A DNA stretch of 64,000 nucleotides from Minisyncoccota bacterium (GCA_020628915.1 JAHDEI010000002.1:7153-71152), one strand, 5' to 3'; shown: positions 2,633 through 64,000, counted from the first letter of the stretch. The notes: generated by a model from the sequence alone, not told the origin. Numbers and translations: made by a program.

Positions 2633-3616
2633 TTAAAAATTAAATAATTCTGAAAAGTTCTCTCTAATATCTTGCCTCAACGAACGCAACAAAGGATCTT
2701 TATAAAAATGTAGAATTTTTTGTTCATATTCGTCATCTCCAGTTGGCGGATCAGTAAAGACAAAGAATTCAAATGTTTCTGCTGAATCTTCCACTGGTGT
2801 GGTTGTTGAGTATGGAGTAACAAAACGATCTTCGTTCTCTTCAAAATATTCGACCGACAACTCTTCTCTCTCGTCTTGATCTGCTCTTTCTACTTCTTCT
2901 GCGTGGTCAAAATCGTTTTCTGTCCAAAATTCTTGAACAAATTTATTTAGATAAGAATCTTCATTAAAACACACACCTGCTTCAAAAAACGTATCACACC
3001 TGCTCTCCCTGATTGATCCGTTATATTCTTCTTCATTTAGGGTTAAGATATGAAAAAACTCGTGAGTGAGCGTGCTCACTAGTTGTTTATGCTTGAGCTC
3101 ACTTTGATTGTGTACTTTTGCTAGATTGACCCCAAGAATCCATTTAGTTGGATCATTCCTGTCCGTTTCAACATACGCTGCAAACACATCGTCTTCATCA
3201 TAATACACACGATAAAAGCCGACATAGTCCTTAATATATTCACGTGGAGATATATCTCTAAAGTCATCCCATATTTCAACCACAATTTCTGGCAGTAACC
3301 CGGTTCCTTCCAGCGCCAGTGTTGCGTCTGATCTAACAGCATATGTACTGTCTTCAAACTGTGATAAATCTTTCGTTATTGTCTGTGCTTGAGCTTGTTC
3401 GGCTAGTAGTTTTTGTACTTCTGCAAGTAGTTCTGCAATGAGCTGTTCTAGAACCTTGATTAGTTCTTGGCGAACTTGTTCACACAACTGATCACCATTA
3501 CAGTTTTGATACGCAGAAAAATCTGAGGTTGGTGAAACAGCAACACTGACGGTCTGTTGACCATACGTAAAAAACGGAATGAGTAAGATGGTAAAAATGA
3601 GGGCAAACCTTTTCAT
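2633..3616 (-). CDS. secreted protein with HExxH zinc-metallopeptidase motif and coiled-coil segment
   Basis: Signal peptide MKRFALIFTILLIPFFTYGQQ; coiled-coil 'ELIKVLEQLIAELLAEVQKLLAEQAQAQ'; 'LTHEFFHILT' HExxH motif. Confidence 0.6.
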   Translation of the reverse strand: MKRFALIFTILLIPFFTYGQQTVSVAVSPTSDFSAYQNCNGDQLCEQVRQELIKVLEQLIAELLAEVQKLLAEQAQAQTITKDLSQFEDSTYAVRSDATLALEGTGLLPEIVVEIWDDFRDISPREYIKDYVGFYRVYYDEDDVFAAYVETDRNDPTKWILGVNLAKVHNQSELKHKQLVSTLTHEFFHILTLNEEEYNGSIRESRCDTFFEAGVCFNEDSYLNKFVQEFWTENDFDHAEEVERADQDEREELSVEYFEENEDRFVTPYSTTTPVEDSAETFEFFVFTDPPTGDDEYEQKILHFYKDPLLRSLRQDIRENFSELFNF

Positions 3617-3623
3617 AATGCAA

Positions 3624-4520
3624 TTATAACAAAACTTTCTCAGTCTTGATTGCTATTCCTCGTTTACTACTGCGAATGCTGTCTCTGCTCATTGTTAACG
3701 TTCCTATTGCAACTAGCCTCCCCCAAGAATCGAACACCGTAACGTAATCGCCAACAACGGCTGAGCTATCGACTGACTTGACACCTGGGACAAAGACGTC
3801 GTTACCTGAGGTAATGTACTTTTCTACTCCTGGTTTTAAAACTACTTTCCGGAATTGTGGCTCTGGAACAGCACTGGTTAAAGGGCATATTTGAGTCCTT
3901 AATTTCTTTCGGGCACGCATTCTCTTAAAAAGATTCCATCTAGTCGAATCATGCGCAAGTATTTCAAGATCGCCTGCGCTAACCCAGCGATCTTTTTCTG
4001 AAAAGGGTCCTACTTTTACCCGATGGAGGTCCCCCATATGTGCACGTACCCCCAAATATTCACCCATATCGTGAAAAAGTTTTCTGATGTATGTGCCGCG
4101 TTCGACGGCACAAAAAAGCGTAGCTTTTTTGTGCTCGTAGTCAAAGTCTTTTATTTCCAATCCGTAGACTTCGCGCTCTCGCTCCACCCTCTTTACTGAT
4201 GATTTACGTGGTGGCAACTGCCTGATCTTGCCTAAAAATTCTTCAATGACTTCTTCTAGTTGCGCTTTCGTCACATGGTCGTGAAATATGATTTCGCCAA
4301 CGTACTGCTTTTCCGACATCAGCATGTATTCAAGAACCTTTGTGCCCTTTCCATAACCAACAACCAACAAACCTGTCACTTTTGGATCTAACGTTCCCGA
4401 ATGCCCGACTTTGACATTCATACCCAATTTTCTCAAGGCGCGCTTAACTGCCACCACCTCGTCATGTGATGTTCTGCCGGCCTGCTTGTTGAGCAAAATA
4501 ATACCACTCTTCGGAATCAT
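3624..4520 (-). CDS. truB: tRNA pseudouridine(55) synthase TruB with PUA domain
   Basis: 'GHSGTLDPKVTGLLVVGYGKGTK' TruB catalytic-Asp motif; 298 aa. Confidence 0.9.
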   Translation of the reverse strand: MIPKSGIILLNKQAGRTSHDEVVAVKRALRKLGMNVKVGHSGTLDPKVTGLLVVGYGKGTKVLEYMLMSEKQYVGEIIFHDHVTKAQLEEVIEEFLGKIRQLPPRKSSVKRVEREREVYGLEIKDFDYEHKKATLFCAVERGTYIRKLFHDMGEYLGVRAHMGDLHRVKVGPFSEKDRWVSAGDLEILAHDSTRWNLFKRMRARKKLRTQICPLTSAVPEPQFRKVVLKPGVEKYITSGNDVFVPGVKSVDSSAVVGDYVTVFDSWGRLVAIGTLTMSRDSIRSSKRGIAIKTEKVLL

Positions 4521-6764: not shown

Positions 6765-7631
6765 TTAGTTTTTGTTGTTTGCGGTTGATTTCACTTTCCT
6801 TCGTTTCACAATCATACCGTTTGAGTATTTCTTTGGATTCCTGGTCTTCTGGCCCTTTCCAGATGGCTTACCCCATTTAGTTCGAGCACGCCGATGACCT
6901 CGACCTGCTTTACCTTCACCACCACCATGAGGGTGATCTACTGGGTTCATCGCAGCACCACGTACTCGTGGTCGTCGACCCATTTTCCGAGCTCGACCTG
7001 CTTTACCAATAGTTACCAATTTATGATGTTCGTTTGATGCTTGTCCGATTGTTGCGAAACAATCTTCTGAAACCTTCCTGATTTCAGAAGAAGGCATCTT
7101 CAGGTTTACTTTTCCTTCGTCATGCGCAACCACCTCGATTGCATTTCCAGCAGAACGAGCAAATCGTGCTCCTGCTCCTGGTTTTGCTTCTACAGCAAAT
7201 ACGAATGTACCGACTGGAACATTTTTCAATGCTACTCGGTTACCTGATTTGATTTCAGCTTTTTCAGCGACAATCATTTCGTCTCCTACTACTACTCCTT
7301 TTGGAGTCAGCACGTATCGTCTCTCGCCATCTCGGTAACAGACCAGAGAAATGAATGATGATCTGTATGGATCGTATTCGATTGTTTCGATCTTTGCTGG
7401 GATATCTTTTTTATCGTAAACAAAGTCTACTTGCCTATATTTTCGCTTTACACCACCTCCTCGGAATCTAGAAGTAAGTCGTCCAAATCCGTTTCGACCT
7501 GATGTATTTTTCTTACCTTTGGTAAGAGATTTCTTTGGGTTATTTCCAGTAGATAAAAGTTCCTTGTACGGCACAACCGTCATCCCTCGTCGTCCTGGTG
7601 TTATCCCTTTGTATCGTTTTAGTGCAGCCAT
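6765..7631 (-). CDS. rplB: 50S ribosomal protein L2
   Basis: MAALKRYKGITPGRRGMTV...; 288 aa. Confidence 0.95.
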   Translation of the reverse strand: MAALKRYKGITPGRRGMTVVPYKELLSTGNNPKKSLTKGKKNTSGRNGFGRLTSRFRGGGVKRKYRQVDFVYDKKDIPAKIETIEYDPYRSSFISLVCYRDGERRYVLTPKGVVVGDEMIVAEKAEIKSGNRVALKNVPVGTFVFAVEAKPGAGARFARSAGNAIEVVAHDEGKVNLKMPSSEIRKVSEDCFATIGQASNEHHKLVTIGKAGRARKMGRRPRVRGAAMNPVDHPHGGGEGKAGRGHRRARTKWGKPSGKGQKTRNPKKYSNGMIVKRRKVKSTANNKN

Positions 7632-53350: not shown

Positions 53351-53746
53351 TTATTTTTTCTTTGTTTGTTTTTCTCCACCGAGAACATTTCCAATCAGGC
53401 TAGCAAGTGCAGAAACACCCGACTGACCAAGGCTCAGTAGCCCGCCGATATTTTGTAGCGCATAGCCCAACATCCAACGCTTAGTTCCTTTCTTGCTTGT
53501 GGCGGTCAGGATAGTACCAAAATTGGTGAAATGAGAAACGAGCTTATCAACCGACAAAGTACTCAGTGTCTTGAAAAAGTCAGCAACTGACCCTGAACCT
53601 TCCTCGCCTGATTTTATTCCAGGGAAATTTTCCTGAATTAAATCGGAACACACATTACAAAAGTTTGCATTTTCGAAAACAGTGATATGTGTACGCCCCT
53701 CCGTCCCTGCTGATTGACTACATAGTGAACAACAGACTTGTGTCAT
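53351..53746 (-). CDS. hypothetical Cys4 zinc-ribbon-like / glycine-zipper protein
   Basis: N-terminal 'CCSLCSQ...CNVC'; C-terminal 'WMLGYALQNIGGLLSLGQSGVSALASLIGNVLGG' amphipathic Gly-zipper. Confidence 0.45.
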   Translation of the reverse strand: MTQVCCSLCSQSAGTEGRTHITVFENANFCNVCSDLIQENFPGIKSGEEGSGSVADFFKTLSTLSVDKLVSHFTNFGTILTATSKKGTKRWMLGYALQNIGGLLSLGQSGVSALASLIGNVLGGEKQTKKK

Positions 53747-53790
53747 TGCTAATCTCCTTCTTTGCTATAATGACTGCAACGGATTATATC

Positions 53791-54258
53791 ATGTCTATAC
53801 TGATTTCAAACAAAAAAGTCAAGAAAGACTTTGGAATATTCGAGACATTCACTGGCGGCTTAGCTCTGACGGGCCAAGAAGTCAAATCTCTCAAGAACAA
53901 CCAAGGGACGCTCAATGGTGCTTTTTTAATACTGCGTGATAATCACAAACAGAATCCTGAATTATGGATCAAGCACTTCTCCATCCCGCCCTACCAGGTC
54001 AAAAACACAGGTGGTGGTTACGACCCTGAACGATTGCGAAAAGTTCTTGTTTCTAAGAAAGAAATAAATCAGATCCAGAAAGAGCTCAACAATAAAGGGA
54101 CCACTATCATTCCCCTGGCGGTTCACAATGCACGAAATCTCATCAAACTAGAATTTGGTCTTGCCCGAGGTAAGAAAAAATTTGATAAACGAGAAGATCT
54201 TAAAAAACGAGCGCAAAAAAGAGATTCTGAACGCGAAACAAAAGCATCTTTTAAATAA
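53791..54258 (+). CDS. smpB: SsrA-binding protein SmpB
   Basis: 'FETFTGGLALTGQEVKSL', 'TTIIPLAVHNARNLIKLEFGLARGKKKFDKRE'; start at MSILISNKK. Confidence 0.9.
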   Translation: MSILISNKKVKKDFGIFETFTGGLALTGQEVKSLKNNQGTLNGAFLILRDNHKQNPELWIKHFSIPPYQVKNTGGGYDPERLRKVLVSKKEINQIQKELNNKGTTIIPLAVHNARNLIKLEFGLARGKKKFDKREDLKKRAQKRDSERETKASFK

Positions 54259-54288
54259 CATGAAAAGAAACATCTGTAAGTACAATGT

Positions 54289-54317
54289 TTGACAAATATG
54301 TAAAAATAAACTATAAT
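54289..54317 (+). promoter_or_regulatory. sigma70-type promoter TTGACA-17-TATAAT
   Basis: Perfect consensus; SD GAGAGGGAA upstream of the CDS at 54356. Confidence 0.6.
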
Positions 54318-54355
54318 ATATAGAGACTATATTCACTTTTAGAGAGGGAATTGTA

Positions 54356-54910
54356 ATGAATATTTTTGAACCTTATAACTCGTCAATTGAATCTCCCCTC
54401 CCGGAAATTCGCCGAATCGCGTTTCGAACATTTAGTACCGCAATGTATGATCAGAAAATTTCAAGATCAGAGAAAAAGCAGGCGGAACAAACGACGGCAA
54501 CCCTACTGTATGAATACATTGCCAATCATCAAATCATCACGGGCAAAAAGTCTGAATACGCCGGATACATCTATTGTTATCTGGTCGCACGCCCTCAATC
54601 TCTTTTTGACGTCTTAATTGGTCGACTGAAAGGTCGCGTTGCGTTTCCAACACCAACAAAGGCGCTTTTGCTTGGTATTGCCAACGCTGAAGACATGGGA
54701 TGGAACCATCAGGAAATTGATGAAGAAATCAATGACCACTTTACATTTTTAGTAAACGATGTTCTGACCAATGCCATGAAGCAAATCGAGCCCGACCGGC
54801 TCGAGACGATAAAAAAGCAATACGAAGAAAAACAGCGACAATACGAAGAGGAGGCTCTGCGAGAAGCAGAGTGGCAATACGAAGACATGCGGTACGAATT
54901 CGAATCTTGA
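54356..54910 (+). CDS. hypothetical protein
   Basis: 184 aa; acidic helical C-terminus; terminator 54920-54948. Confidence 0.5.
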   Translation: MNIFEPYNSSIESPLPEIRRIAFRTFSTAMYDQKISRSEKKQAEQTTATLLYEYIANHQIITGKKSEYAGYIYCYLVARPQSLFDVLIGRLKGRVAFPTPTKALLLGIANAEDMGWNHQEIDEEINDHFTFLVNDVLTNAMKQIEPDRLETIKKQYEEKQRQYEEEALREAEWQYEDMRYEFES

Positions 54911-55003
54911 TGAGATCTATCACCCGACCACTGTCGGGTGATTTTTTATGTTCAAAACTCAGAAAAGTACCTGGGTGATATAATAAAATACTCCCTAGAC
55001 TGT

Positions 55004-55468
55004 ATGAAAAGTAAAATAGACAGTGAAAAAATTTTATCAAACAGCAAGACCAGTTGGTTGCTGGTTTTGGCGATTTTCATAACAACACTTGCCTACTTTG
55101 GCTTGACTTCAATCAAGCAAATCCCTGAGCAGACCAAGCAGCTGACCTATGAAACACGGGCCGTTAATATTGATGGTCGAACTCTGAACCTTATAGTCTC
55201 TGACACGCACGAAAAAAGGGTGCTAGGTTTGTCTGGCAGATCTAGCCTTGATGGTGCCGATGGTATGCTCTTTGTGTTTGACTCCCCTGACCTGCATGGC
55301 ATCTGGATGAAAGACATGATAATGACCATAGATATATTTTGGTATGACGACCGGTGGAATAAGGTTCACGAAATCCTCTCTGCGAGCCCAGAGAGTTACC
55401 CAGAAGTCTTCAAGCCCGAAACTCCAGCTTTCTACGTCGTAGAAATCCCAACCAAAAAACTCCCGTAG
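55004..55468 (+). CDS. DUF192 family protein (secreted/membrane-anchored)
   Basis: 'LNLIVSDTHEKRVLGLSGRSSLDGADGMLFVFDSPDLHGIWMKDMIMTIDIFWYD' matches the DUF192/COG1430 pattern; start at MKSKIDSEK. Confidence 0.65.
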   Translation: MKSKIDSEKILSNSKTSWLLVLAIFITTLAYFGLTSIKQIPEQTKQLTYETRAVNIDGRTLNLIVSDTHEKRVLGLSGRSSLDGADGMLFVFDSPDLHGIWMKDMIMTIDIFWYDDRWNKVHEILSASPESYPEVFKPETPAFYVVEIPTKKLP

Positions 55469-55478
55469 GGAGTTTTTG

Positions 55479-56600
55479 CTAACGAATCGAGGTATAACCA
55501 TTTGTGAGCCCTTCCTTACTCAGAACCAACTGCCATAAAGAAATTCTACGAGCTCGGAACAAAGCAGAACAAACCAAGAGATAATATGTCCACATTCTGT
55601 AAAACCGGTCACTGTAATCTTTTTTTAATTTAGGCCATGCTTTTTCGAAATTGTTGTACCACGCAGTGAGAGTTTTGTCATAATCTGGGCCAAAATTATG
55701 CCAATCTTCCATAACAAATAGTCCGCTCATTGCTGTTCCAACTTGTTCTACAGATGGAATTAATCCGTTTGGGAAAATATATTTATCAATCCATGGATCC
55801 CCTGCTTTGGCACTCTCGTCACGTCCAATGGTGTGCAACAAGAAAAGACCATCATCTTTGAGCAACTCTTTTACTTTTTCAAAATACACTCGATAATTTT
55901 TGTATCCCACATGCTCGAACATCCCAATGGAAACAATATGGTCAAACCCTTCTTTATCTTGATAATTTCGATAGTCTTCAACTACAAATTCAACTGGTAA
56001 ACCTTCACATCGCTTGGCACCAAGCTTTGCTTGTTCCACAGAAACAGTGAGTCCTACACATATTGCACCATATTTTTCGGCTGCAAATTTCATAAAACTA
56101 CCCCATCCACACCCAATATCCAAAACACGATCTCCTTCTTTCAGACCAATCTTTTTACAAACTAAATCTAACTTCGCCTCCTGTGCCGCATCTAGATCTT
56201 GTGCGTCTTTCCAGTATGCACAGGTATACACCATACGGCTGTCTAACATTTTCTCGTACAGTGCGTTGCCAATATCATAGTGCTCTTGCCCTACCTGAAA
56301 TGATCTTTTTTTACTCTGCAGGTTAACCAGCTTTGCTTTAGTAACGTGCCCTACTAGAGAGAGTGGGTTAATTTGCTCGTCTATATTTGCTCGTACCACC
56401 TTGGTTACCACAGCTGCTAGGTCATCTGCATCCCACCATCCATCCATGTAACTTTCGCCCAAAGCCAAAGAACCACCAGCCAAAATTCGTGAGAAAAAAT
56501 CATTATTATGAACAATAATGTCTGCAGGCTCAGATTTACTCGTAGAAATAGTAATTCCTGCGATCTTTGCTAATTCCAATACCTTTTCTTGTGCGTTCAT
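55479..56600 (-). CDS. cfa: cyclopropane-fatty-acyl-phospholipid synthase family SAM-dependent methyltransferase
   Basis: 'VLDIGCGWGSFMKFAAEKYGAICVGLTVSVEQ', 'IVSIGMFEHVG'; start at MNAQEK. Confidence 0.85.
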   Translation of the reverse strand: MNAQEKVLELAKIAGITISTSKSEPADIIVHNNDFFSRILAGGSLALGESYMDGWWDADDLAAVVTKVVRANIDEQINPLSLVGHVTKAKLVNLQSKKRSFQVGQEHYDIGNALYEKMLDSRMVYTCAYWKDAQDLDAAQEAKLDLVCKKIGLKEGDRVLDIGCGWGSFMKFAAEKYGAICVGLTVSVEQAKLGAKRCEGLPVEFVVEDYRNYQDKEGFDHIVSIGMFEHVGYKNYRVYFEKVKELLKDDGLFLLHTIGRDESAKAGDPWIDKYIFPNGLIPSVEQVGTAMSGLFVMEDWHNFGPDYDKTLTAWYNNFEKAWPKLKKDYSDRFYRMWTYYLLVCSALFRARRISLWQLVLSKEGLTNGYTSIR

Positions 56601-56641
56601 AGTAATGCATTTTACGCAAACAAGAACACTTTCGCAATGCA

Positions 56642-56670
56642 TTGACCTGATTTCCAAAGCACCCTATAAT
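56642..56670 (+). promoter_or_regulatory. sigma70-type promoter TTGACC-17-TATAAT for ssrA
   Basis: -10 ends 9 nt before the tmRNA 5' GGGG. Confidence 0.6.
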
Positions 56671-56679
56671 GCGGCCATT

Positions 56680-57087
56680 GGGGATGACGGGCTTTGACAA
56701 TTTAGTTTCGAACTTTGTGCAATGCGACTTTTCCAGGTTTCGTAAAAAACTGGGATACCTTTACGTGCAAACGCTAAAGACAACGCGGTGGCTAGCCCAT
56801 ACGCACCTGCATTTGCTTTTGCTTAAGAGTTGAGCCTTTTGGCTCCTCGATGTAGGCGGTTTTCGTGATAGGTGCTAAGACTACACGTTAGCTGTTATCT
56901 TGCTTAGCTAGTGAATATGTGGCTGCTTCATATTCATGAAATCACACGCAGCTGGTTTTTCTAGAGTTTTGATTAATTTATATCTAGGAAAATAAGATGA
57001 TTCCCTAGGGAATCAAAAATTACTCTATCATTGTAGAGTCAATTTCTCGGACTATCTTGGACGGGGGTTCAACTCCCCCCTTCTCCA
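56680..57087 (+). ncRNA. ssrA: tmRNA (SsrA)
   Basis: 5' 'GGGGAUGACGGGCUUUGAC...UUCGAAC', pseudoknot PK1 'CCAGGUUUCGUAAAAAACUGGG'. Tag reading frame GCA AAC GCU ... UAA at 56767-56826 (ANAKDNAVASPYAPAFAFA). 3' 'GGACGGGGGUUCAACUCCCCC-CUUCUCC-A' forms the T-arm and a 7-bp acceptor stem with G3.U wobble and discriminator A; CCA not fully encoded. Confidence 0.85.
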
Positions 57088-58636
57088 CATCAAGGGTGTC
57101 ACTGTCACCTAATCGCTCAAAAAGCCTTAAAATTACAGTCTTTTCAGGGGTTCGATAACCGTTTTCTTTGTCATATCTCAGATTCGCTTCAAAAAAGAAC
57201 GGAAACACCTCATGTTTTTGTTCGAGATTTCCTGTAACCCATAGCTGATAAGGGTTTCTCATCATTTCTAATACTTCATCTAGAGCGTTCCGATAAGGTT
57301 TTTCAAGATCTGGTTTTTTACTCTTCTTTTCCTCAATAAGAGCTAATTTTTGTGCATCCTCCTCCATCCGTAAAGACAATCTATCTTTTACTGCATCAGA
57401 AGTCTTTGGATCAATCAACATATCTTCAATACGCCTTAGACTCTCTTGAATGCTTTCTCCTTGCTTCTCAAGGCTTAAAATGCGTTTGTCTAGGTTCTTA
57501 AACTCATCTTTCCAGTATGTATCAAACATATACTTTATAAGCTCTTCGAACTCTTGTTTTGACTTCAGTGAGCACGTGAACTCTTCAAATCCCTTATGAA
57601 GGTCATCCCTCCTAATACTCTTGTTCTTAAATGGACAATCAGGAGTGTATTTGCACTCGTAGTAGTAATAATAATCCCCATGTCGACCTTTCGATTTATA
57701 CCCCGTTAACTTGCGTCCACAATGAGAACAATTCACCAAACCTCGTAAGGGAAAATCTGGATTAAGATCCATTCGTGAATAACGGGTATTTGACTCCTTG
57801 TTTAGTCGCTTTTGAATAGCCTCAAAAGTTTCCAAGCCAATAAGTGGTTCATGTTTTCCTTTTACCATCTTCACTTCCCATTTTGGATAATCAATATATC
57901 CTGCGTAAAACACATTAGTAAGCATCGCCTTGATGGTTTTCAAATATTTCTCAGACTTATGTCGAGGTAATTTCCCTTTTTGTGGGAAAAAATCTTTTGA
58001 CAACAGAAAATCTACCACATCCACCTGCTTTGCAAACCTTCGTGAAGCAAAACCTTCCAAAGCTTCCTTAATACTCTTTGCATCTTTGTTTGGGTGACAT
58101 AGCTTCCCATACTCTTCGGTTTTTATCATCTCGTATCCCTTTGGAGCATGAAATGACCACAAACCTCTCTCTAAACGTGCTTTTTGTTTCTGAACCACCT
58201 GTCTTTTATTTTGCTTTCGCTCTAACTCACCTTGAGCAGCAATTATAATCTCAACGAATTCTCCTTCTGGAGTATCTTCAAAGTTAAAGTTGAGACACTG
58301 GACTTCTGTGCTCGTCGATCTAAATTGTTGCCGCAACTTTAAATGAGCAACAGTGTCTCTGGCAAGTCGCTTCAAGTCATCGAAAACGACAACGTAATCT
58401 TCATGAATATTTGTCTCAAGATACTCAATCAACTCTCTCATGGCGGGACGACCCATAAAATCACCGCCTCCAGTAAAACTATCTCTGAATACATCCACCA
58501 CTTGGTAATCCTTCCTTGTGCAGTAATCTCTACATCGTTTTTCTTGTGATTCTAATCCTGATCCTTCCGTTCTTTGCTTGTCAGTTGATACTCGGCAATA
58601 AATCAGTGCTCTTTTTTTTGTTTTAATATTACTCAT
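57020..58636 (-). CDS. large serine recombinase (resolvase domain + recombinase domain + zinc ribbon + coiled coil)
   Basis: 'ALIYCRVSTDKQ' catalytic-Ser motif, 'GYIDYPKWEV', Cys-rich 'CSHCGRKL...YYYYECKYTPDC'; C-terminal ~20 codons overlap the tmRNA 3' end on the opposite strand ('GGVEPP' is the T-arm read backwards). Confidence 0.85.
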   Translation of the reverse strand: MSNIKTKKRALIYCRVSTDKQRTEGSGLESQEKRCRDYCTRKDYQVVDVFRDSFTGGGDFMGRPAMRELIEYLETNIHEDYVVVFDDLKRLARDTVAHLKLRQQFRSTSTEVQCLNFNFEDTPEGEFVEIIIAAQGELERKQNKRQVVQKQKARLERGLWSFHAPKGYEMIKTEEYGKLCHPNKDAKSIKEALEGFASRRFAKQVDVVDFLLSKDFFPQKGKLPRHKSEKYLKTIKAMLTNVFYAGYIDYPKWEVKMVKGKHEPLIGLETFEAIQKRLNKESNTRYSRMDLNPDFPLRGLVNCSHCGRKLTGYKSKGRHGDYYYYYECKYTPDCPFKNKSIRRDDLHKGFEEFTCSLKSKQEFEELIKYMFDTYWKDEFKNLDKRILSLEKQGESIQESLRRIEDMLIDPKTSDAVKDRLSLRMEEDAQKLALIEEKKSKKPDLEKPYRNALDEVLEMMRNPYQLWVTGNLEQKHEVFPFFFEANLRYDKENGYRTPEKTVILRLFERLGDSDTLDVEKGGVEPPSKIVREIDSTMIE

Positions 58637-58959
58637 AGTTAATTTTATCCATCAAATATTTGATTCTTTGCAGGAACTCCTGAAACTCTATGCTTTCCAT
58701 ATCTCTTTTTATTTGTTTAATTTTGATAAACATCAAATTCTGCAGTGCTCTCATGAAATCTATTATGAACACGAGTATAGACGAAATTAGCAAGGAAAAG
58801 CAGCTCTTCTTCTCGAATATCTACACCCATTCTCTCTGCCCTCATCTGAAAGTCTTTTAATGTCTTCTCGTTCATCTCGCTTAATTTGATAAACAAACTA
58901 TTTAGTTTGCTCTCTAATTAAACTAAGATACGAGTATTAAATAAGGTTCAAATTAAACA

Positions 58960-59718
58960 CTATTTGATTTGTACCTTTTTGTTTATTTGCCTTTGGAGTT
59001 TCCTTGTCCTCTTAATTATTTGCCGCACATTCTCTGTTCCCATATCTACCCTGTACCTCTCCTTAAACACTCGTGCAGTAGCCTGTTCAATATAGATGTC
59101 AATATCTTCCTTGAACCCTTCTTTATCTTGTAACACCTCATCGTGAGTCTTTAAGAGATACCTATCACGCTGTAAATTCTTCTTTGGAGCTTTTTTTCTA
59201 TTGGTAAGTTTGATTATATTTTTTCCGTAATCAGTATACTCCTGGAGCGTAACCCCTTGTTTGAGGTAGACATGAATGTCTCCACCATCTTTTACCTGAT
59301 GAGATATAAACGAATCGAGCCGCTCTGGGACTTCTAAGATAAGTCCCTCCGTCAGAAAAAAGTAGATGCCTGCTCCAAATTTCAAGAAGAACGTTTGTAT
59401 GTACTCTCGAAAACTAGATATCTGTTCTCCTGAATACTCATGAACAAAATATTCACTTTGAAAAACTTCATCTGCCAATGTTTGAAGGACACCAATCGAT
59501 GCTGTCTCGAGCTCTATTTTGTCACCACTCTTCTTAATTAAACGAGCACATTCAAAGAAAAAGTCCTCCAGCGCTTCTTCTAAGCCATCTTTATATAGTA
59601 AGAGGCTTACAATTTCTGCCTTCTCGTGATCTCCTTCCTCAGCATAGGCATTCAAACTCTTCCTTAAGTAACCACGAAAATGTCTTTTATTTACTTGAAC
59701 GGGCTTAGTATTACTCAT
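58960..59718 (-). CDS. hypothetical protein (element cargo)
   Basis: 252-aa ORF. Confidence 0.5.
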   Translation of the reverse strand: MSNTKPVQVNKRHFRGYLRKSLNAYAEEGDHEKAEIVSLLLYKDGLEEALEDFFFECARLIKKSGDKIELETASIGVLQTLADEVFQSEYFVHEYSGEQISSFREYIQTFFLKFGAGIYFFLTEGLILEVPERLDSFISHQVKDGGDIHVYLKQGVTLQEYTDYGKNIIKLTNRKKAPKKNLQRDRYLLKTHDEVLQDKEGFKEDIDIYIEQATARVFKERYRVDMGTENVRQIIKRTRKLQRQINKKVQIK

Positions 59719-59739
59719 GTGTAAAGAATAGCACGTGAA

Positions 59740-60102
59740 CTATATACCCCCCATTAATGCATTTAGTGTTTTATGTTGTTGAGTGTTCACTTGAGAATTT
59801 TCCGAGATTATAACTTCTTGAATCTCAATTTTCCTATTCATCTGCTCAAGTAATCCTGTAATTATTGCTATCTGCTCTGCATGCTTTTTTACTTCATCAT
59901 TCAATCCAGCTATCCCTCCTTCCAATGCTGCTCCTTCACTGTCGTATCCCACATTCAATACAATGTCTAAAACATCCTTCTCTAAAGTATTATTCCTAGA
60001 AAGTAATTCTGTAATAACTTGTGATTGGTACCACGAAAAGAAACTTAATATTCCCAATATTATTATGATAGCAATCCAGCTAATCCTATATACATATTTC
60101 AT
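59740..60102 (-). CDS. hypothetical membrane-anchored coiled-coil protein (element cargo)
   Basis: N-terminal TM 'ISWIAIIIILGILSFF' then coiled coil. Confidence 0.5.
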   Translation of the reverse strand: MKYVYRISWIAIIIILGILSFFSWYQSQVITELLSRNNTLEKDVLDIVLNVGYDSEGAALEGGIAGLNDEVKKHAEQIAIITGLLEQMNRKIEIQEVIISENSQVNTQQHKTLNALMGGI

Positions 60103-60377
60103 ATATCTACTCTTATTCTTGTAATTTTAGGCAGACAAAAAGCCCACCACCAAGGAGATCCGAAGATCTTATGCGCAGTTTCCCTTGCATAACCATAACA
60201 GCAGGCCCATTGATGATGGGTTTTTTATGCTGTTATGGTTTTAATGCTTCACCATACCTCAGAGAGGGTTAGGTATTGCAAGTATTATTGTATCAAAAAA
60301 TACCGTATATTCGTTTGTAAGTGCTATTTCCCCTATATATACCCCCTCAACTTGATTTATTTATCAAGATATCAAGA

Positions 60378-61046
60378 TTAAAAATAATAATTCTCTACAA
60401 ATGTCTTTATTTTTGAGTCATCTTCTTGATTAAAAAATGAGTCTACACTAATGTCTTTGTACAGATCACCTTCGTCTAAGAACATAACTCTATCTGCCCC
60501 CCTTTCAGCAAAACCGAGTTCATGCGTTGCAAAAATAACTTGATAATCCTCTTCCTTTAATTTCTGAACCATCTCAAGAATATTCTTGGTAGCTTCAGGG
60601 TCAAGCGCAGATGTCACCTCATCCAACAAGAAAACTCGTGCGTTAATCATTAGGGCCCTGATTAGAGCAGTACGCTGTCTTTGACCTCCGGATAACTCGT
60701 TTGGGTACTTATTTCTGTGCTCATAAAGTTCAAACTCTTTAAGATATGTAACCGCTGTCTCCTTGTAGCTTTTCTCCCCTCTTAGCTTTGGAAGCAAAGT
60801 AATATTTTCTATTAGTGTTAGATGAGGAAATAAAGTGTAGTCTTGCGAAACATATGCGATCTTTCCATCAAAATTGATTTCTCCGGCATCTTTCTGTTCC
60901 AAGCCAGCTAAGAGTCTCAATAGCGTACTCTTACCTGAGCCACTTTTACCAACAAGTGCTATCGCCTCTCCGGGTGATACAGAAAAGCTTATATCTTTAA
61001 CAGAAAATCCTTCATATGATTTTGTAAGATTTGTAATTTTAGACAT
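60378..61046 (-). CDS. amino-acid ABC transporter ATP-binding protein
   Basis: Walker A 'GKSGSGKST', signature 'LSGGQRQRTALIRAL', Walker B 'FLLDEVTSALD'. Confidence 0.9.
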   Translation of the reverse strand: MSKITNLTKSYEGFSVKDISFSVSPGEAIALVGKSGSGKSTLLRLLAGLEQKDAGEINFDGKIAYVSQDYTLFPHLTLIENITLLPKLRGEKSYKETAVTYLKEFELYEHRNKYPNELSGGQRQRTALIRALMINARVFLLDEVTSALDPEATKNILEMVQKLKEEDYQVIFATHELGFAERGADRVMFLDEGDLYKDISVDSFFNQEDDSKIKTFVENYYF

Positions 61047-61689
61047 ACTCGACTTTATTATATTTCTTAAAATATGTCACAAAAAGATGAAGTGGTGCAA
61101 GAATTACTACAAAAAACAATATTAACAAGGTGTAGATAGGTACTGGATCATATATCAACGAGTTCACATTCTGGGCAACTCTAAATATCTCGGGTACTGC
61201 GATCAAAGACGCAAATAATGTGTATTCAAGCATTGTGGCTTGCAACAACATTACCTCAGGAAATGATCTCTTGAAGACAAGTGGTATCTCAATATTTCTC
61301 ACTATTTCTCCTTGTGTCATTCCAAGTGAGCTAGCTGACTCAATATATTTTTTAGGTAGTAGTTTGATCTCAGAAAATATCAAGTACGCAACGGAAATTA
61401 AATTAACGAGTCCAAATACCGCAACTGCTGTCCAGAATGGATCAACAACTACTCCCAACAATACTTGTAGTGGGTAGTGAAACCAAAATAGTATCACCAA
61501 AACTGGTATCACTTTTGAAAGAAACTTGAGTGAAGTTACAATATCACCAAATAACTCAATCTTTGAAGACAAAGCGCCTAAAAGAGTCCCTCCAGCCAAT
61601 CCAATTATCACAATCAATACAAAAAGCTTTACTGTTGTAATAAATCCACTTAAGAACAATGCTTGATGATTGATGAGAATGTCGATCAT
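61039..61689 (-). CDS. amino-acid ABC transporter permease (PAAT family)
   Basis: 216 aa, ~5 TM, EAA-like loop region; overlaps the ATPase start by 8 nt. Confidence 0.8.
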   Translation of the reverse strand: MIDILINHQALFLSGFITTVKLFVLIVIIGLAGGTLLGALSSKIELFGDIVTSLKFLSKVIPVLVILFWFHYPLQVLLGVVVDPFWTAVAVFGLVNLISVAYLIFSEIKLLPKKYIESASSLGMTQGEIVRNIEIPLVFKRSFPEVMLLQATMLEYTLFASLIAVPEIFRVAQNVNSLIYDPVPIYTLLILFFVVILAPLHLFVTYFKKYNKVEYV

Positions 61690-61695
61690 GTTTGA

Positions 61696-62550
61696 TTATT
61701 CGTATGTCTTCTTCTCCAGCAAGAAACTATCTCTAATGTCGTACTTATTAAGCAGTTCTTCAACTTTACCTTCATTGGCAAGTTCTTGTAGTGCAACGTT
61801 CCACATTCTCAACATGGCATCTTCCCCTCTAGGAAATACGTAGGAGTTCCCAAAAGTACGTACGAGTTCGTCTGATGCTTGCTTAATTGAACCTGGATTA
61901 CTCTCTAAGAAGTTATTAGCAACTGTTGGATCTACGAAAGTAATGTCAGCTTTTCCAGTTGTAATATTTAAAAGTATTTCTGATACAGAAGAGAGTGCAG
62001 GAAGCTCCACAACAGGAGCATTAGGATACGACTCTTTAGCAATAAATGAAGACATTTCTCCATCTAGAGTGCTGAGTTTGTATTCTCCAGAGGTTAGTAC
62101 ATCTAAGCCGTTATCAAACCGGTCATCGTCAGCTCGTGAGTACGCATAAACAGTACTGTACATAACAGGCTCAGAGAAGTATGCATTCCGTGCTCGTGAT
62201 GAGTTTGGCCACATCAAAACTCCCATCATGTCATATCTACCTACTTTTAAGTCTTCAGTTGCTGTTCCCCAAGCTGACTCTCCAGCCCAATTAATCTTAA
62301 TATTTAATCTTTCAGCGATTAATTCTGCCAGCTCATAAGAAAACCCAGACAAATCTCCTGTTTCAGGATCTTGGATAATATATGGATCATACACAATATA
62401 ACCCGCATTAATCTCTCCTTTTGATAAAACCTTCTCAACTAAATCTTGTTCATAAGATACTGACTTATCTTCATTGTTAAATGATAGTAATGCGAAGATT
62501 AAAGCCAATATTGCGATGATCCCGACCCCGTATTTTTGTACTTTTTCCAT
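61696..62550 (-). CDS. amino-acid ABC transporter substrate-binding protein (SBP family 3)
   Basis: Signal/anchor then 'GYIVYDPYIIQDPETGDLSGFSYELAELIAERL'. Confidence 0.8.
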   Translation of the reverse strand: MEKVQKYGVGIIAILALIFALLSFNNEDKSVSYEQDLVEKVLSKGEINAGYIVYDPYIIQDPETGDLSGFSYELAELIAERLNIKINWAGESAWGTATEDLKVGRYDMMGVLMWPNSSRARNAYFSEPVMYSTVYAYSRADDDRFDNGLDVLTSGEYKLSTLDGEMSSFIAKESYPNAPVVELPALSSVSEILLNITTGKADITFVDPTVANNFLESNPGSIKQASDELVRTFGNSYVFPRGEDAMLRMWNVALQELANEGKVEELLNKYDIRDSFLLEKKTYE

Positions 62551-62576
62551 AAAATAATTTTATCACAGTCGATAAC

Positions 62577-63251
62577 TTATTTATAAGCAACCAAAACAGC
62601 ATCTCTCTCAACTCGATCAGCGATCTCTACCCTAGAAAATCCAATCTCTTTTAGCTGTTTTGTTATTTCGTCTTCATCAATTCTATACAGATCTGTCGTA
62701 TCTTGTATTTCATGAGCAATCATCTCTTCTCGTGCTTTATCTGAAGTCATATAACGATAACGTTTATTTTGGTGATCGAGCATCTTTTCTAAGTCTGCAT
62801 TCTCAGGATAAATCTTCTCGGCTATTACCAACATTCCATCATCTGTGAGATTTTGATAAGCAAGTTTTAATAACTCGAGTCGCTCGCTATTTGGGAAATT
62901 GTGTATTGTCCAACAAGAAAAGATAGTATCGTATGGATCTGCAATCTTTAAGTACTCATATGCGTCTTCACATACAAAACTTGTCCGATCTTGGTAGGTT
63001 GTCAGCTTTTCTTTTGCTGTCTCGATCATGGTTGGAGAAACATCTAACAAATCAAGATTAGCTCCTGTGCGCTCAAGTACTGGAACAGTTGAATCTCCTT
63101 GGCCACACCCTATCTCTAAAACTCGGTCTCCATCTTTATATTTCTTCGCTATCTCAAATGCTGTTACATAAAAAAGGATAGGATTATACGGATTTAAATC
63201 AATAATCTCTTCGTTGTACTTCTCTAGTAAGTTATCATATCTGTTCTTCAT
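62577..63251 (-). CDS. class I SAM-dependent methyltransferase
   Basis: Motif I 'RVLEIGCGQGDST', 'LLDVSPTMIE'. Confidence 0.8.
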   Translation of the reverse strand: MKNRYDNLLEKYNEEIIDLNPYNPILFYVTAFEIAKKYKDGDRVLEIGCGQGDSTVPVLERTGANLDLLDVSPTMIETAKEKLTTYQDRTSFVCEDAYEYLKIADPYDTIFSCWTIHNFPNSERLELLKLAYQNLTDDGMLVIAEKIYPENADLEKMLDHQNKRYRYMTSDKAREEMIAHEIQDTTDLYRIDEDEITKQLKEIGFSRVEIADRVERDAVLVAYK

Positions 63252-63427
63252 AATCTTATTATATATTAGATTATCTTCTTGTGCCCCCTATTGGATACTG
63301 TATTTGTTTAAGAATATAGTCTATACAGGTTTTAAGTTCCTATTTTTTGGCAAGTTAATCCACGTATACCACTGCCACACAAAGGTTTTTACTTGTTCCG
63401 ATGTATCAGGCGTAATTTCCACATAAA

Positions 63428-63455
63428 AACAACGCGGCCTTTCGGCCGCGTTGTT
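63428..63455 (-). terminator. intrinsic terminator aacaacgcggcc-tttc-ggccgcgttgtt
   Basis: 12-bp stem followed by T-run on minus strand; downstream of 63466.. gene. Confidence 0.7.
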
Positions 63456-63465
63456 TTTTGAAACC

Positions 63466-64000
63466 CTACAGAAAAAAATATACTCCTATACCCACCAAAC
63501 AAATAATGACAACCATCCACGCAAATGATCTCAGTACATCTTTACGAGCAAGTAATGCAATATAACCAACTTTCACAAAGGTATTAATAACAATAGACAA
63601 CGTCACAGCCAACGTAGTAATTCCTTGAGAAATCTCCCCCACCTTATGAGCCTGTAACGCAGAAAGAATTGACGCGTCTACATCCACAAACGATGACAGC
63701 AAAGCAATAGCGAGCACTCCATAGTCTCCAAAATAATCTTTTGCGAATGAGACTGCCAGCAAAACAACCACAAACAATGCCCCGAACTTTAATGCAGGCA
63801 TGATTTCAAAAGGGCTACTGATTTCTGGATCAAGTTCAACAATATTAGACATGTCCCGACCCTTCCACATCGACCACCCAACAAGTAATACCGTCACGGT
63901 AAGCATAGAAACAGGAACAAAAATAACTGATTTTACTTCGGCTCCGGCAACAACCCCAATTTCAAAAATGACTCTTAGTAGCATTGTTCCAATTGCAATA
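63466..64000 (-). CDS. integral membrane protein (MgtC/DUF4010-like?), N-terminus beyond window end
   Basis: Reading frame stays open to the window edge upstream of the listed Met; multiple TM helices. Confidence 0.5.
   Translation of the reverse strand, partial: IAIGTMLLRVIFEIGVVAGAEVKSVIFVPVSMLTVTVLLVGWSMWKGRDMSNIVELDPEISSPFEIMPALKFGALFVVVLLAVSFAKDYFGDYGVLAIALLSSFVDVDASILSALQAHKVGEISQGITTLAVTLSIVINTFVKVGYIALLARKDVLRSFAWMVVIICLVGIGVYFFL

Follow-up and report, generated by a model that had tools for sequence, protein, structure and literature searches.

The closest precedent for the element described here is a group of islands integrated at the transfer-messenger RNA (tmRNA) gene, ssrA, of Dehalococcoides. 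Their serine integrase, DsiB, has a length of ~540 amino acids (aa), and its open reading frame (ORF) always extends ~70 bp into ssrA at attL. These islands are further characterized by a 20-bp repeat, T-loop insertion and tandem arrays downstream of ssrA, and it was speculated that dsiB is perhaps complete only on the circle or beside another island (McMurdie et al. 2011, PMC3146451). Here, we analyzed a stretch of 64,000 nucleotides (nt) from a Minisyncoccota bacterium (GCA_020628915.1, JAHDEI010000002.1:7153-71152; hereafter, the window), in which the gene for a large serine recombinase (LSR) on the reverse strand overlaps the 3′ end of an intact ssrA gene. Most probably, the region past ssrA is an integrated or formerly integrating small island of a type that is widespread in Patescibacteria, mobilized by the LSR, which targets tmRNA or tRNA genes (together referred to as tDNA) at their 3′ ends.

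An attP located within a gene of the element, so that integration alters the 3′ end of this gene, is found for SSV1-type archaeal integrases and in the integration-dependent immunity of mycobacteriophages, and both systems employ tyrosine recombinases. The clade of the window enzyme differs from these in being a serine recombinase of which the last ~15–30 codons alone change, with a functional effect that is hypothetical. The islands mapped by Islander and TIGER share with the window the integrase gene beside a regenerated tDNA and the position of the island past the tDNA 3′ end, and in some relatives of the window element a displaced tDNA fragment likewise forms the far boundary. The islands of these two programs, however, depend on a tyrosine enzyme, whereas the window clade uses a serine recombinase. 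According to the Islander paper, targeting of tRNA genes was not known for serine recombinases (Hudson et al. 2015, PMC4383910), and in the later literature that we found the present LSR clade is not described.

The recombinase gene at the 3′ end of ssrA

The Rfam model RF00023 matches positions 56680–57090 over its full length (model positions 1–374) with 111.2 bits, compared with a gathering score of 47, and ARAGORN likewise reports a tmRNA gene, the sole tRNA-like gene of the window. In the sequence, the T-arm is composed of GGGGG (57063–57067), TTCAACT (57068–57074) and CCCCC (57075–57079), followed by the 3′ strand of the acceptor (57080–57086) and the discriminator A at 57087, in a tRNA-Ala-like arrangement with G3·U. 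A preliminary description of this locus had proposed an intact tmRNA gene with these T-arm and acceptor features, a promoter of its own and an end at 57087. All of this was confirmed, with the end now placed at 57088.

The LSR gene runs towards ssrA and terminates inside it, with a TAA stop at 57020–57022. The overlap amounts to 69 nt, or 23 codons including the stop (previously estimated as ~20), and the tail of the protein, ...DVEKGGVEPPSKIVREIDSTMIE, is the antisense of the tmRNA acceptor and T-arm. This chromosomal tail can also be given as ..GGVEPPSKIVREIDSTMIE, and the LSR 3′ end at the junction as ..GATGTGGA. Within attL, the CTCCAC block at 57083–57088 is the counterpart of the GTGGA(G/C) block which opens every attR-type site in the relatives.

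The protein contains the Resolvase (PF00239, 1.6e-24), Recombinase (PF07508, 3e-7) and Zn_ribbon_recom (PF13408, 4.7e-8) domains, and the scores of the latter two exceed the curated cut-offs. Their order, with the resolvase catalytic domain followed by the recombinase domain and the zinc ribbon, is the same as in the LSRs TP901-1, A118, Bxb1, phiC31, CcrB and XisF; the window clade differs from these enzymes by an extra C-terminal region of ~150 aa and by an attP lying across the 3′ end of the gene. Among solved structures, the catalytic domain of TP901-1 integrase is the best match, while the XisF and CcrB NCBIfam models match below their cut-offs. The R15-V16-S17 motif is invariant in 36 aligned family members, and the window LSR keeps all family-invariant residues, including R15 and S17. 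As a large serine recombinase, it would catalyze attP x attB recombination with a 2-bp crossover.

This arrangement closely resembles that of the DsiB islands. Both possess a reverse-strand LSR of ~540 aa at attL (538 aa in the window) which overlaps ssrA by ~70 bp (69 nt), both target the tmRNA 3′ end, and both the DsiB islands and the clade of the window form tandem arrays and are free of conjugation or capsid genes. Using the published ssrA-repeat primer, 120 metagenome loci were fetched, one of which (L162) encodes a DsiA-like 203-aa recombinase followed by an LSR ending in ..WWRRGRVELPVQKTP over the ssrA end. The T-arm is read in a common frame, as GRVELP in this DsiB-type LSR and as GGVEPP in the window. 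The window LSR and the L162 protein, which is DsiB-type and not the authentic DhcVS DsiB, are distant relatives with 23% identity in the N-terminal 364 aa and no similarity in the C-terminal ~190 aa. Furthermore, dsiA, recF-like, parB and mom Pfam domains are absent from the ORFs of 57020–60377, where ARAGORN also finds no embedded tRNA-like gene. The Patescibacterial clade differs from the DsiB islands in that it targets tRNA genes too, carries a tail exon in many members and contains LOOT, a structured RNA (both described below). Judging from these comparisons, the window element appears to work like a DsiB island without being a member of the DsiB module.

Relatives of the recombinase and their targets

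A protein search returned more than 2,000 LSR homologs with 40–52% identity, mostly from Patescibacteria (candidate phyla radiation) assemblies. In most of them the C-terminus reads ..DVEMGGIEPPC.., ..VEMAGIEPAS.. or ..VDPTGLEPATPSLQMRCST.., sequences that result when the acceptor and T-arms of tmRNA or tRNA genes are translated from the opposite strand. A sample of 89 loci was assembled from 80 of at least 593 genome loci, eight viral loci and locus L091, to which a homolog of the 252-aa protein encoded upstream of the window LSR had led. According to ARAGORN, 56 of the 89 loci have a tDNA convergent with the LSR gene at its 3′ end, comprising 27 tmRNA, 21 tRNA-Ala, four tRNA-Thr, two tRNA-Leu, one tRNA-Met and one tRNA-Ser genes. 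Rfam revealed five further tmRNAs missed by ARAGORN, which brings the number to at least 61. In the relatives, LSR and tDNA overlap by a median of 63–65 nt, slightly less than the 69 nt of the window, and the tDNA is read in a frame, G-[IVFL]-E-P, that is nearly invariant among related loci. The GGVEPP encoded by the T-arm complement, which the preliminary description took for an integrase footprint, is thus read in a family-wide frame.

An overlap of this kind could in theory be fortuitous, if an ordinary chromosomal resolvase or invertase gene simply lacked a stop before the tmRNA gene; the T-arm antisense is open in all three frames, and read-through would cost nothing. However, the same frame and a similar length are found in at least 61 independent loci with six kinds of tDNA, and repeats and tail exons mark the island ends. 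As dozens of loci with LSRs that are only 38–47% identical show this arrangement and frame, we regard coincidence as extremely improbable.

The clade-specific C-terminal region of ~150 aa is conserved and ends in RLFE-x-F-x5-DV(E/D). No known recombination directionality factor was identified for the clade. Directly upstream of the LSR gene and co-oriented with it, 49 of 88 loci encode a small protein, fam0 (e.g., L008 9838–9969 and L091 3346–3591), with the core ..S[IV]EEYRKxLxDxxSSDEQIxKRLxYLEAFCRNII.., which is a candidate for a directionality factor or a regulator.

Members of the clade are likewise present in Rhodobacterales, Gammaproteobacteria and other metagenome-assembled genomes, on tRNA-Thr, tRNA-Ala, tRNA-Met and tRNA-Leu genes. 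Nine of the sampled loci (L046, L052, L056, L059, L060, L073–L075 and L079) are Proteobacterial members from Roseovarius, Henriciella, Lutimaribacter, Rhizobiaceae and Gammaproteobacteria. They lie on tRNA-Thr(GGT), tRNA-Ala(GGC) and tRNA-Met and have their own distinct upstream gene set; LOOT was not detected in any of the nine.

Island ends and the tail exon

The far ends of the relatives' islands are marked in one of two ways, by a 15–20-nt repeat of the tDNA 3′ terminus or by a GTGGA(C)...ATYGAAC site that is conserved. In L010, L037 (with two such repeats), L055, L057 and L058, an exact repeat is located 3.5–8.4 kb upstream of the tDNA, and L014 contains a tDNA repeat with two mismatches. 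At the island far end, a conserved coding segment of ~30 aa is found, the tail exon, with the hidden Markov model (HMM) consensus KTLNRLKTYLSRFWEYYQSSPNLQKALEN. The HMM detected this segment 28 times, in 27 loci and invariably on the strand of the LSR, and the islands delimited in this way would measure ~3.3–11 kb. Each copy opens at a GTGGAca.a..g.gtAAaa.ATtgAACc.c.TaAAA block; conservation stops upstream of this block, where a hairpin with a T-run often sits.

LSR copies which do not adjoin a full tDNA end in ..NRLKDYLxRFWxYYxxSPxLQKAL, a conserved tail seen in the upstream array units L038#1 and L042#1 and in the database proteins P0013 and P0015. When attL and attR of L014 were joined in silico, ..DVEMGG was fused in frame to KMLNRLKDYLSRFWGYYNSS.. 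(also written KMLNRLKDYLSRFW..). For six tDNA-repeat islands the circular-form tail was reconstructed as well, and in five of them it is short and not conserved. Tandem units of LSR and LOOT are present in L038 and L042, while the viral contig L081 has the LSR with a tDNA 3′ fragment alone, an arrangement which looks like an attP. From the repeats, the tail exons and the attP reconstruction, we infer that the LSR ORF spans attP and that integration swaps its last codons for antisense tDNA.

In many relatives of the window element, the two ends are identical over little more than GTGGA, as expected of an enzyme that needs a short crossover core, and at tmRNA loci with a tail exon the two ends share little past GTGGA. 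The long repeats are compatible with a crossover in the T-loop. On the element side, ATYGAAC is positioned ~5 nt farther from GTGGA than in the tDNA. A spacing difference of this kind is the rule for the half-sites of attP versus attB in large serine integrases. The dyad symmetry of the reconstructed attP is weak, reaching 0.36 at GTGGA against a background of 0.25, and a stronger peak is situated inside the coding region.

Two loci show more than one far-end signal. In L014, three serial tail exons (1371–1412, 2975–3058 and 3930–4019), each after a GTGGA block, lie upstream of one LSR and look like an array of attR-type remnants from successive integrations. In L057, an exact 20-nt repeat of the tRNA-Ala end (7277–7296) and a tail-exon junction (8145) are 870 bp apart, which suggests a short older remnant between two att-type sites.

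LOOT RNA within the islands

The preliminary description noted a nested hairpin with a 13-bp stem after the two hypothetical ORFs. The hairpin is real (60192–60240, −30.7 kcal/mol, z = −4.7), but it does not stand alone, being the long second helix of the four-hairpin LOOT RNA (RF03000). The Rfam model matches the window copy over its full length with 45.4 bits and an E-value of 1e-7 at a permissive threshold, 1 bit under the gathering score of 46.4. A model built from island copies raises this to 72 bits (E-value 3e-13), and the minimum free energy fold contains all four hairpins. In L091, LOOT scores 57.6 bits and the order of features is that of the window: LOOT, a membrane protein, a protein of 25x aa, a small protein, the LSR, tmRNA and SmpB.

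The island-copy model was seeded from the single L091 sequence, rebuilt from 24 matches and run over 1.54 Mb of locus DNA; a two-sequence MAFFT start alignment was dropped because it misaligned the long helix. A total of 39 copies were found, 37 of them 0.4–4.6 kb (median 1.4 kb) upstream of an LSR gene, and LOOT is present in 32 of the 68 loci with enough upstream sequence. Seven island copies reach 80–94 bits with the Rfam model itself. The 39 aligned copies covary strongly, with pairing in 93.6% of cells and compensatory changes at 37 of 38 pairs. Dehalococcoidia-type ssrA loci, scanned over 0.52 Mb as a control, yielded one weak match.

An ORF on the same strand starts 35–70 nt downstream of LOOT; in the window this is the 120-aa gene, at 53 nt. 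The genes led by LOOT encode membrane or secreted proteins, and an N-terminal hydrophobic segment is predicted in 30 of the 39 ORFs compared with 19% of control ORFs (p ~7e-15). In Rfam, LOOT is typed as ‘Gene; sRNA’, and the window copy shares its four-hairpin build with GNRA-type loops. In our locus dataset, however, LOOT is not free-standing and lies inside LSR islands before a same-strand ORF, which suggests a 5′ leader rather than a free-standing small RNA (sRNA).

An ACAAyTrAATA motif is conserved 5–12 nt upstream of the Rfam LOOT start in most members, with a TATAAT-like hexamer further upstream in many loci. This motif suggests either a 5′ extension of the RNA or a transcription start region, and the Rfam model probably leaves out part of the RNA at the 5′ end. 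In the window, TGATACAAT at 60287–60295 was considered as an extended −10 promoter of LOOT and set aside, as it matches the conserved motif and the promoter reading is insecure. A separate RNA element, a SAM riboswitch (RF00162, 55.6 bits), is located between LOOT and the LSR of the Patescibacterial island L035 (7140–7236, minus strand).

No description of the association between LOOT and LSR islands was found in the searchable literature, and the same applies to the tail exon at the island far end; both the tail exon and the LOOT leader are family-level features.

Extent and integrity of the window element

The features of the window are collected in Table 1. On the minus strand, the module reads LOOT leader, 120-aa membrane protein, 252-aa partner, small ORF(s), LSR and attL/tmRNA.

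Table 1. Features of the window at and downstream of ssrA (positions counted from the first nucleotide of the window).
Feature	Position	Strand	Basis or remark
tmRNA promoter, sigma-70-type, TTGACC-17-TATAAT	56642–56670	+	11/12 matches; ends 9 nt before the tmRNA 5′ end
Intact tmRNA gene (ssrA)	56680–57088	+	ARAGORN and Rfam RF00023
Perfect palindromic hairpin TGATTCCCTAGGGAATCA	56998–57015		Inside tmRNA; insertion relative to the Rfam consensus
attL region, LSR 3′ end (−) over tmRNA T-arm/acceptor (+)	57020–57088		69-nt overlap
LSR, 538 aa, integrated-form tail ..DVEKGG then VEPPSKIVREIDSTMIE	57020–58636	−	ORF and domain matches
Two overlapping small ORFs, 54 aa and 59 aa, putative	58629–58896	−	At the fam0 position
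252-aa protein, rare family	58960–59718	−	ORF; recurs upstream of LSR genes
120-aa protein, N-terminal transmembrane (TM) segment and coiled coil	59740–60102	−	Gene led by LOOT
LOOT RNA (RF03000), four hairpins	60156–60275	−	Covariance models
ACAATAATA, window copy of the ACAAyTrAATA motif	60285–60293	−	Read from sequences
Amino-acid-type ATP-binding cassette (ABC) transporter operon	60378–62550	−	Annotation
S-adenosylmethionine (SAM) methyltransferase	62577–63251	−	Annotation
DUF4010 membrane protein	63466 to at least 63984	−	Annotation

The DNA composition shifts precisely where the tmRNA gene ends and remains foreign as far as the final nucleotide of the window. The GC content is 0.369 in both 57089–60377 and 60378–63677 compared with 0.407 ± 0.009 in the host (z of about −4), and the tetranucleotide z is ~6 for both 3.3-kb blocks, a value which none of 107 host windows equals.

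The preliminary description placed the right end of the element at 60377. This would correspond to a minimal element of 3.3 kb, with the ABC transporter and the later genes belonging to the host, and complete islands of 3.3–3.5 kb indeed exist among the relatives (L058, L078 and L057). Moreover, 60103–60377 is the sole long intergenic spacer nearby. However, this spacer holds LOOT and its upstream motif and not an att site, and LOOT is internal to the relatives' islands, lying 5.9 kb from the far repeat in L055. Since the composition is equally foreign through 60378–63677, where it is as atypical as in the LSR module, 60377 is not the right end, and a minimal element is quite unlikely. The ABC operon, the methyltransferase and the DUF4010 gene are probably cargo of the window's element or of an older tandem element, as judged from their composition and from the absence of attR before them. 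The island or island array would then run right through the ABC operon past the window end, with attR either beyond it or lost. A perfect 15-bp inverted repeat, AAAAACAACGCGGCC / GGCCGCGTTGTTTTT, lies at 63425–63458 between the DUF4010 and methyltransferase genes and is probably a bidirectional terminator.

Several results weigh against an intact, mobile island in the window. A repeat of the tmRNA 3′ end, which as an att-type copy would read CTCCCCCCTTCTCCAC, was not found in 57090–64000, either with seeds or when allowing up to 3 mismatches in 21 nt or up to 5 in 17 nt; CTTCACCATAC at ~60248 was considered as a repeat of CTTCTCCACAT, and its 9/12 identity was judged to be chance. Neither the attR-type DNA motif nor the tail exon (by HMM) is present in these 6.9 kb. 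The putative 54-aa and 59-aa ORFs show no homology to fam0 by HMM or hhalign. A search for an empty-site relative via the flanking CMAS-like methyltransferase returned a nearest homolog with 63% identity and no close genome in the collections. In addition, the comparison loci all derive from metagenome assemblies, and the crossover point could be either the T-loop or the terminal TCCAC. The window copy is thus only putatively intact and mobile.

These observations bear on the possibility that the locus is a locked-in remnant of a past integration at ssrA, in which attR and the tail exon were lost, so that the LSR is stranded and excision is impossible. The lack of any attR-type site, tDNA repeat or tail exon, the undetected small partner protein and the short circular-form tails of five of the six tDNA-repeat islands would fit such a remnant. 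On the other hand, the LSR ORF is full length and retains every family-invariant residue, LOOT still scores 72 bits with the family model, and the relatives' islands reach ~11 kb while only 6.9 kb are visible here. Foreign composition to the last base also fits an attR further on. A stranded remnant is thus a possible, though not the probable, state of this island.

A temperate phage or phage satellite at ssrA has also to be considered. The LSR matches the phrog_95 integrase family (1e-67), eight relatives are on contigs classed as viral, and the 120-aa protein gives weak Rz-like spanin matches alone, which are confined to the TM segment. However, capsid, terminase, tail and lysis genes are absent both from the 6.9 kb of the window and from the complete 8.4-kb tmRNA island L055, which encodes hypothetical proteins, an HTH/Gp49 pair and a TIG-domain protein. 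With 3.3–11 kb, the family islands are too small for tailed phages, and a phage origin seems very unlikely. The small LSR-mobilized island at ssrA, which was also the core proposal of the preliminary description, remains the preferred reading on the family-wide evidence.

Both the 252-aa and the 120-aa ORFs exist as first described, and the earlier proposal that they form a defense or addiction cargo was not borne out. Pfam, PADLOC, PHROG and NCBIfam gave no match for the 252-aa protein, which has only ~10 relatives among 1.84 billion representatives, and its AlphaFold2 model is confident (pLDDT 78) without a fold match in the PDB. Its relatives head operons that close with an LSR abutting tDNA, as in L091 and in L093, where the LSR belongs to another clade. 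From this gene context, the protein is best taken as an element gene, and not as evidence of a defense module. For the 120-aa protein, no significant PADLOC, Pfam or NCBIfam match was obtained. L093 (6400–11363) and L094 contain another mobile module. It is headed by the 252-aa homolog, after which come a DUF5659 protein, a 57-aa ORF, a 417-aa P-loop protein and a 202-aa protein, and its serine recombinase belongs to a different clade, with a tail (..RDLNPN) that reads the T-arm in another frame.

The tmRNA tag and the upstream neighbors

The start of the tag depends on the method. ARAGORN predicts the tag AKDNAVASPYAPAFAFA with the resume codon GCT at 56773, while in the Rfam alignment the consensus resume position falls on GCA at 56767, resulting in ANAKDNAVASPYAPAFAFA; the GCA codon proposed earlier is therefore supported by the Rfam alignment and not by ARAGORN. 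With either start, the tag ends in SPYAPAFAFA before the TAA stop at 56824–56826. This ending had been called unusual. The tags of Patescibacterial relatives at related loci end in ..NFAFAFA, ..PRAFAFA, ..PSFAFA, ..FAPAFA or ..FALA, and the AFAFA type is the norm for the lineage.

On the minus strand, the palindrome inside the tmRNA gene lies 5 nt past the stop codon of the LSR, with a T-rich run behind it. It is terminator-like and might end LSR transcription within ssrA.

SmpB is encoded at 53689–54258. Three ORFs, and not two genes as counted before, separate smpB from ssrA (53689–56680), namely a 184-aa ORF, a DUF192 protein and a cyclopropane-fatty-acid-synthase-like methyltransferase. 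The related loci mostly differ from the window in that smpB directly adjoins the tmRNA gene.

Proposed mechanism of integration

According to the proposed mechanism, the LSR would recombine attB, situated in the last 5–20 nt of the tDNA, with an attP that straddles the 3′ end of the LSR gene itself, and the tDNA would remain functional after integration. The C-terminal tail of the LSR would then be encoded by whatever spans the junction, which is antisense tDNA in the chromosome and, in many family members, the conserved ~30-aa tail in the circle or in a tandem array. The tail exon would join the LSR ORF solely after excision or in tandem arrays.

It is tempting to extend this to a joint reading of the tail and LOOT, which we put forward as speculative and rather doubtful. 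Here, integration would split the LSR gene, and the swap of the tail, combined with transcription that runs head-on from the strong tmRNA promoter, would provide an excisionase-free switch of integrase activity or directionality. An excised circle, or a copy beside another element, would regain the conserved amphipathic tail of ~30 aa (..NRLKDYLSRFWxYYxSSPxLQKAL) kept at the island far end. In the same reading, LOOT would be a 5′ leader controlling an element-encoded envelope protein, which might function, for example, in exclusion or host attachment in the episymbiotic Patescibacteria.

Implications

The targeting of tDNA by a very large LSR clade contradicts the rule built into island-finding software that only tyrosine integrases do so. 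The clade is set in the Patescibacteria, whose mobile elements are barely charted, and in some Proteobacteria. The GTGGA...ATYGAAC site together with the tail exon provides a sequence handle for mapping islands where repeat searches fail. LSRs with a natural and universally conserved target, the 3′ end of tmRNA or tRNA-Ala, are also possible integration tools for intractable bacteria. Finally, the orphan LOOT RNA can be assigned to a genomic context, and a role as leader of genes for membrane or secreted proteins in these islands can be tested.

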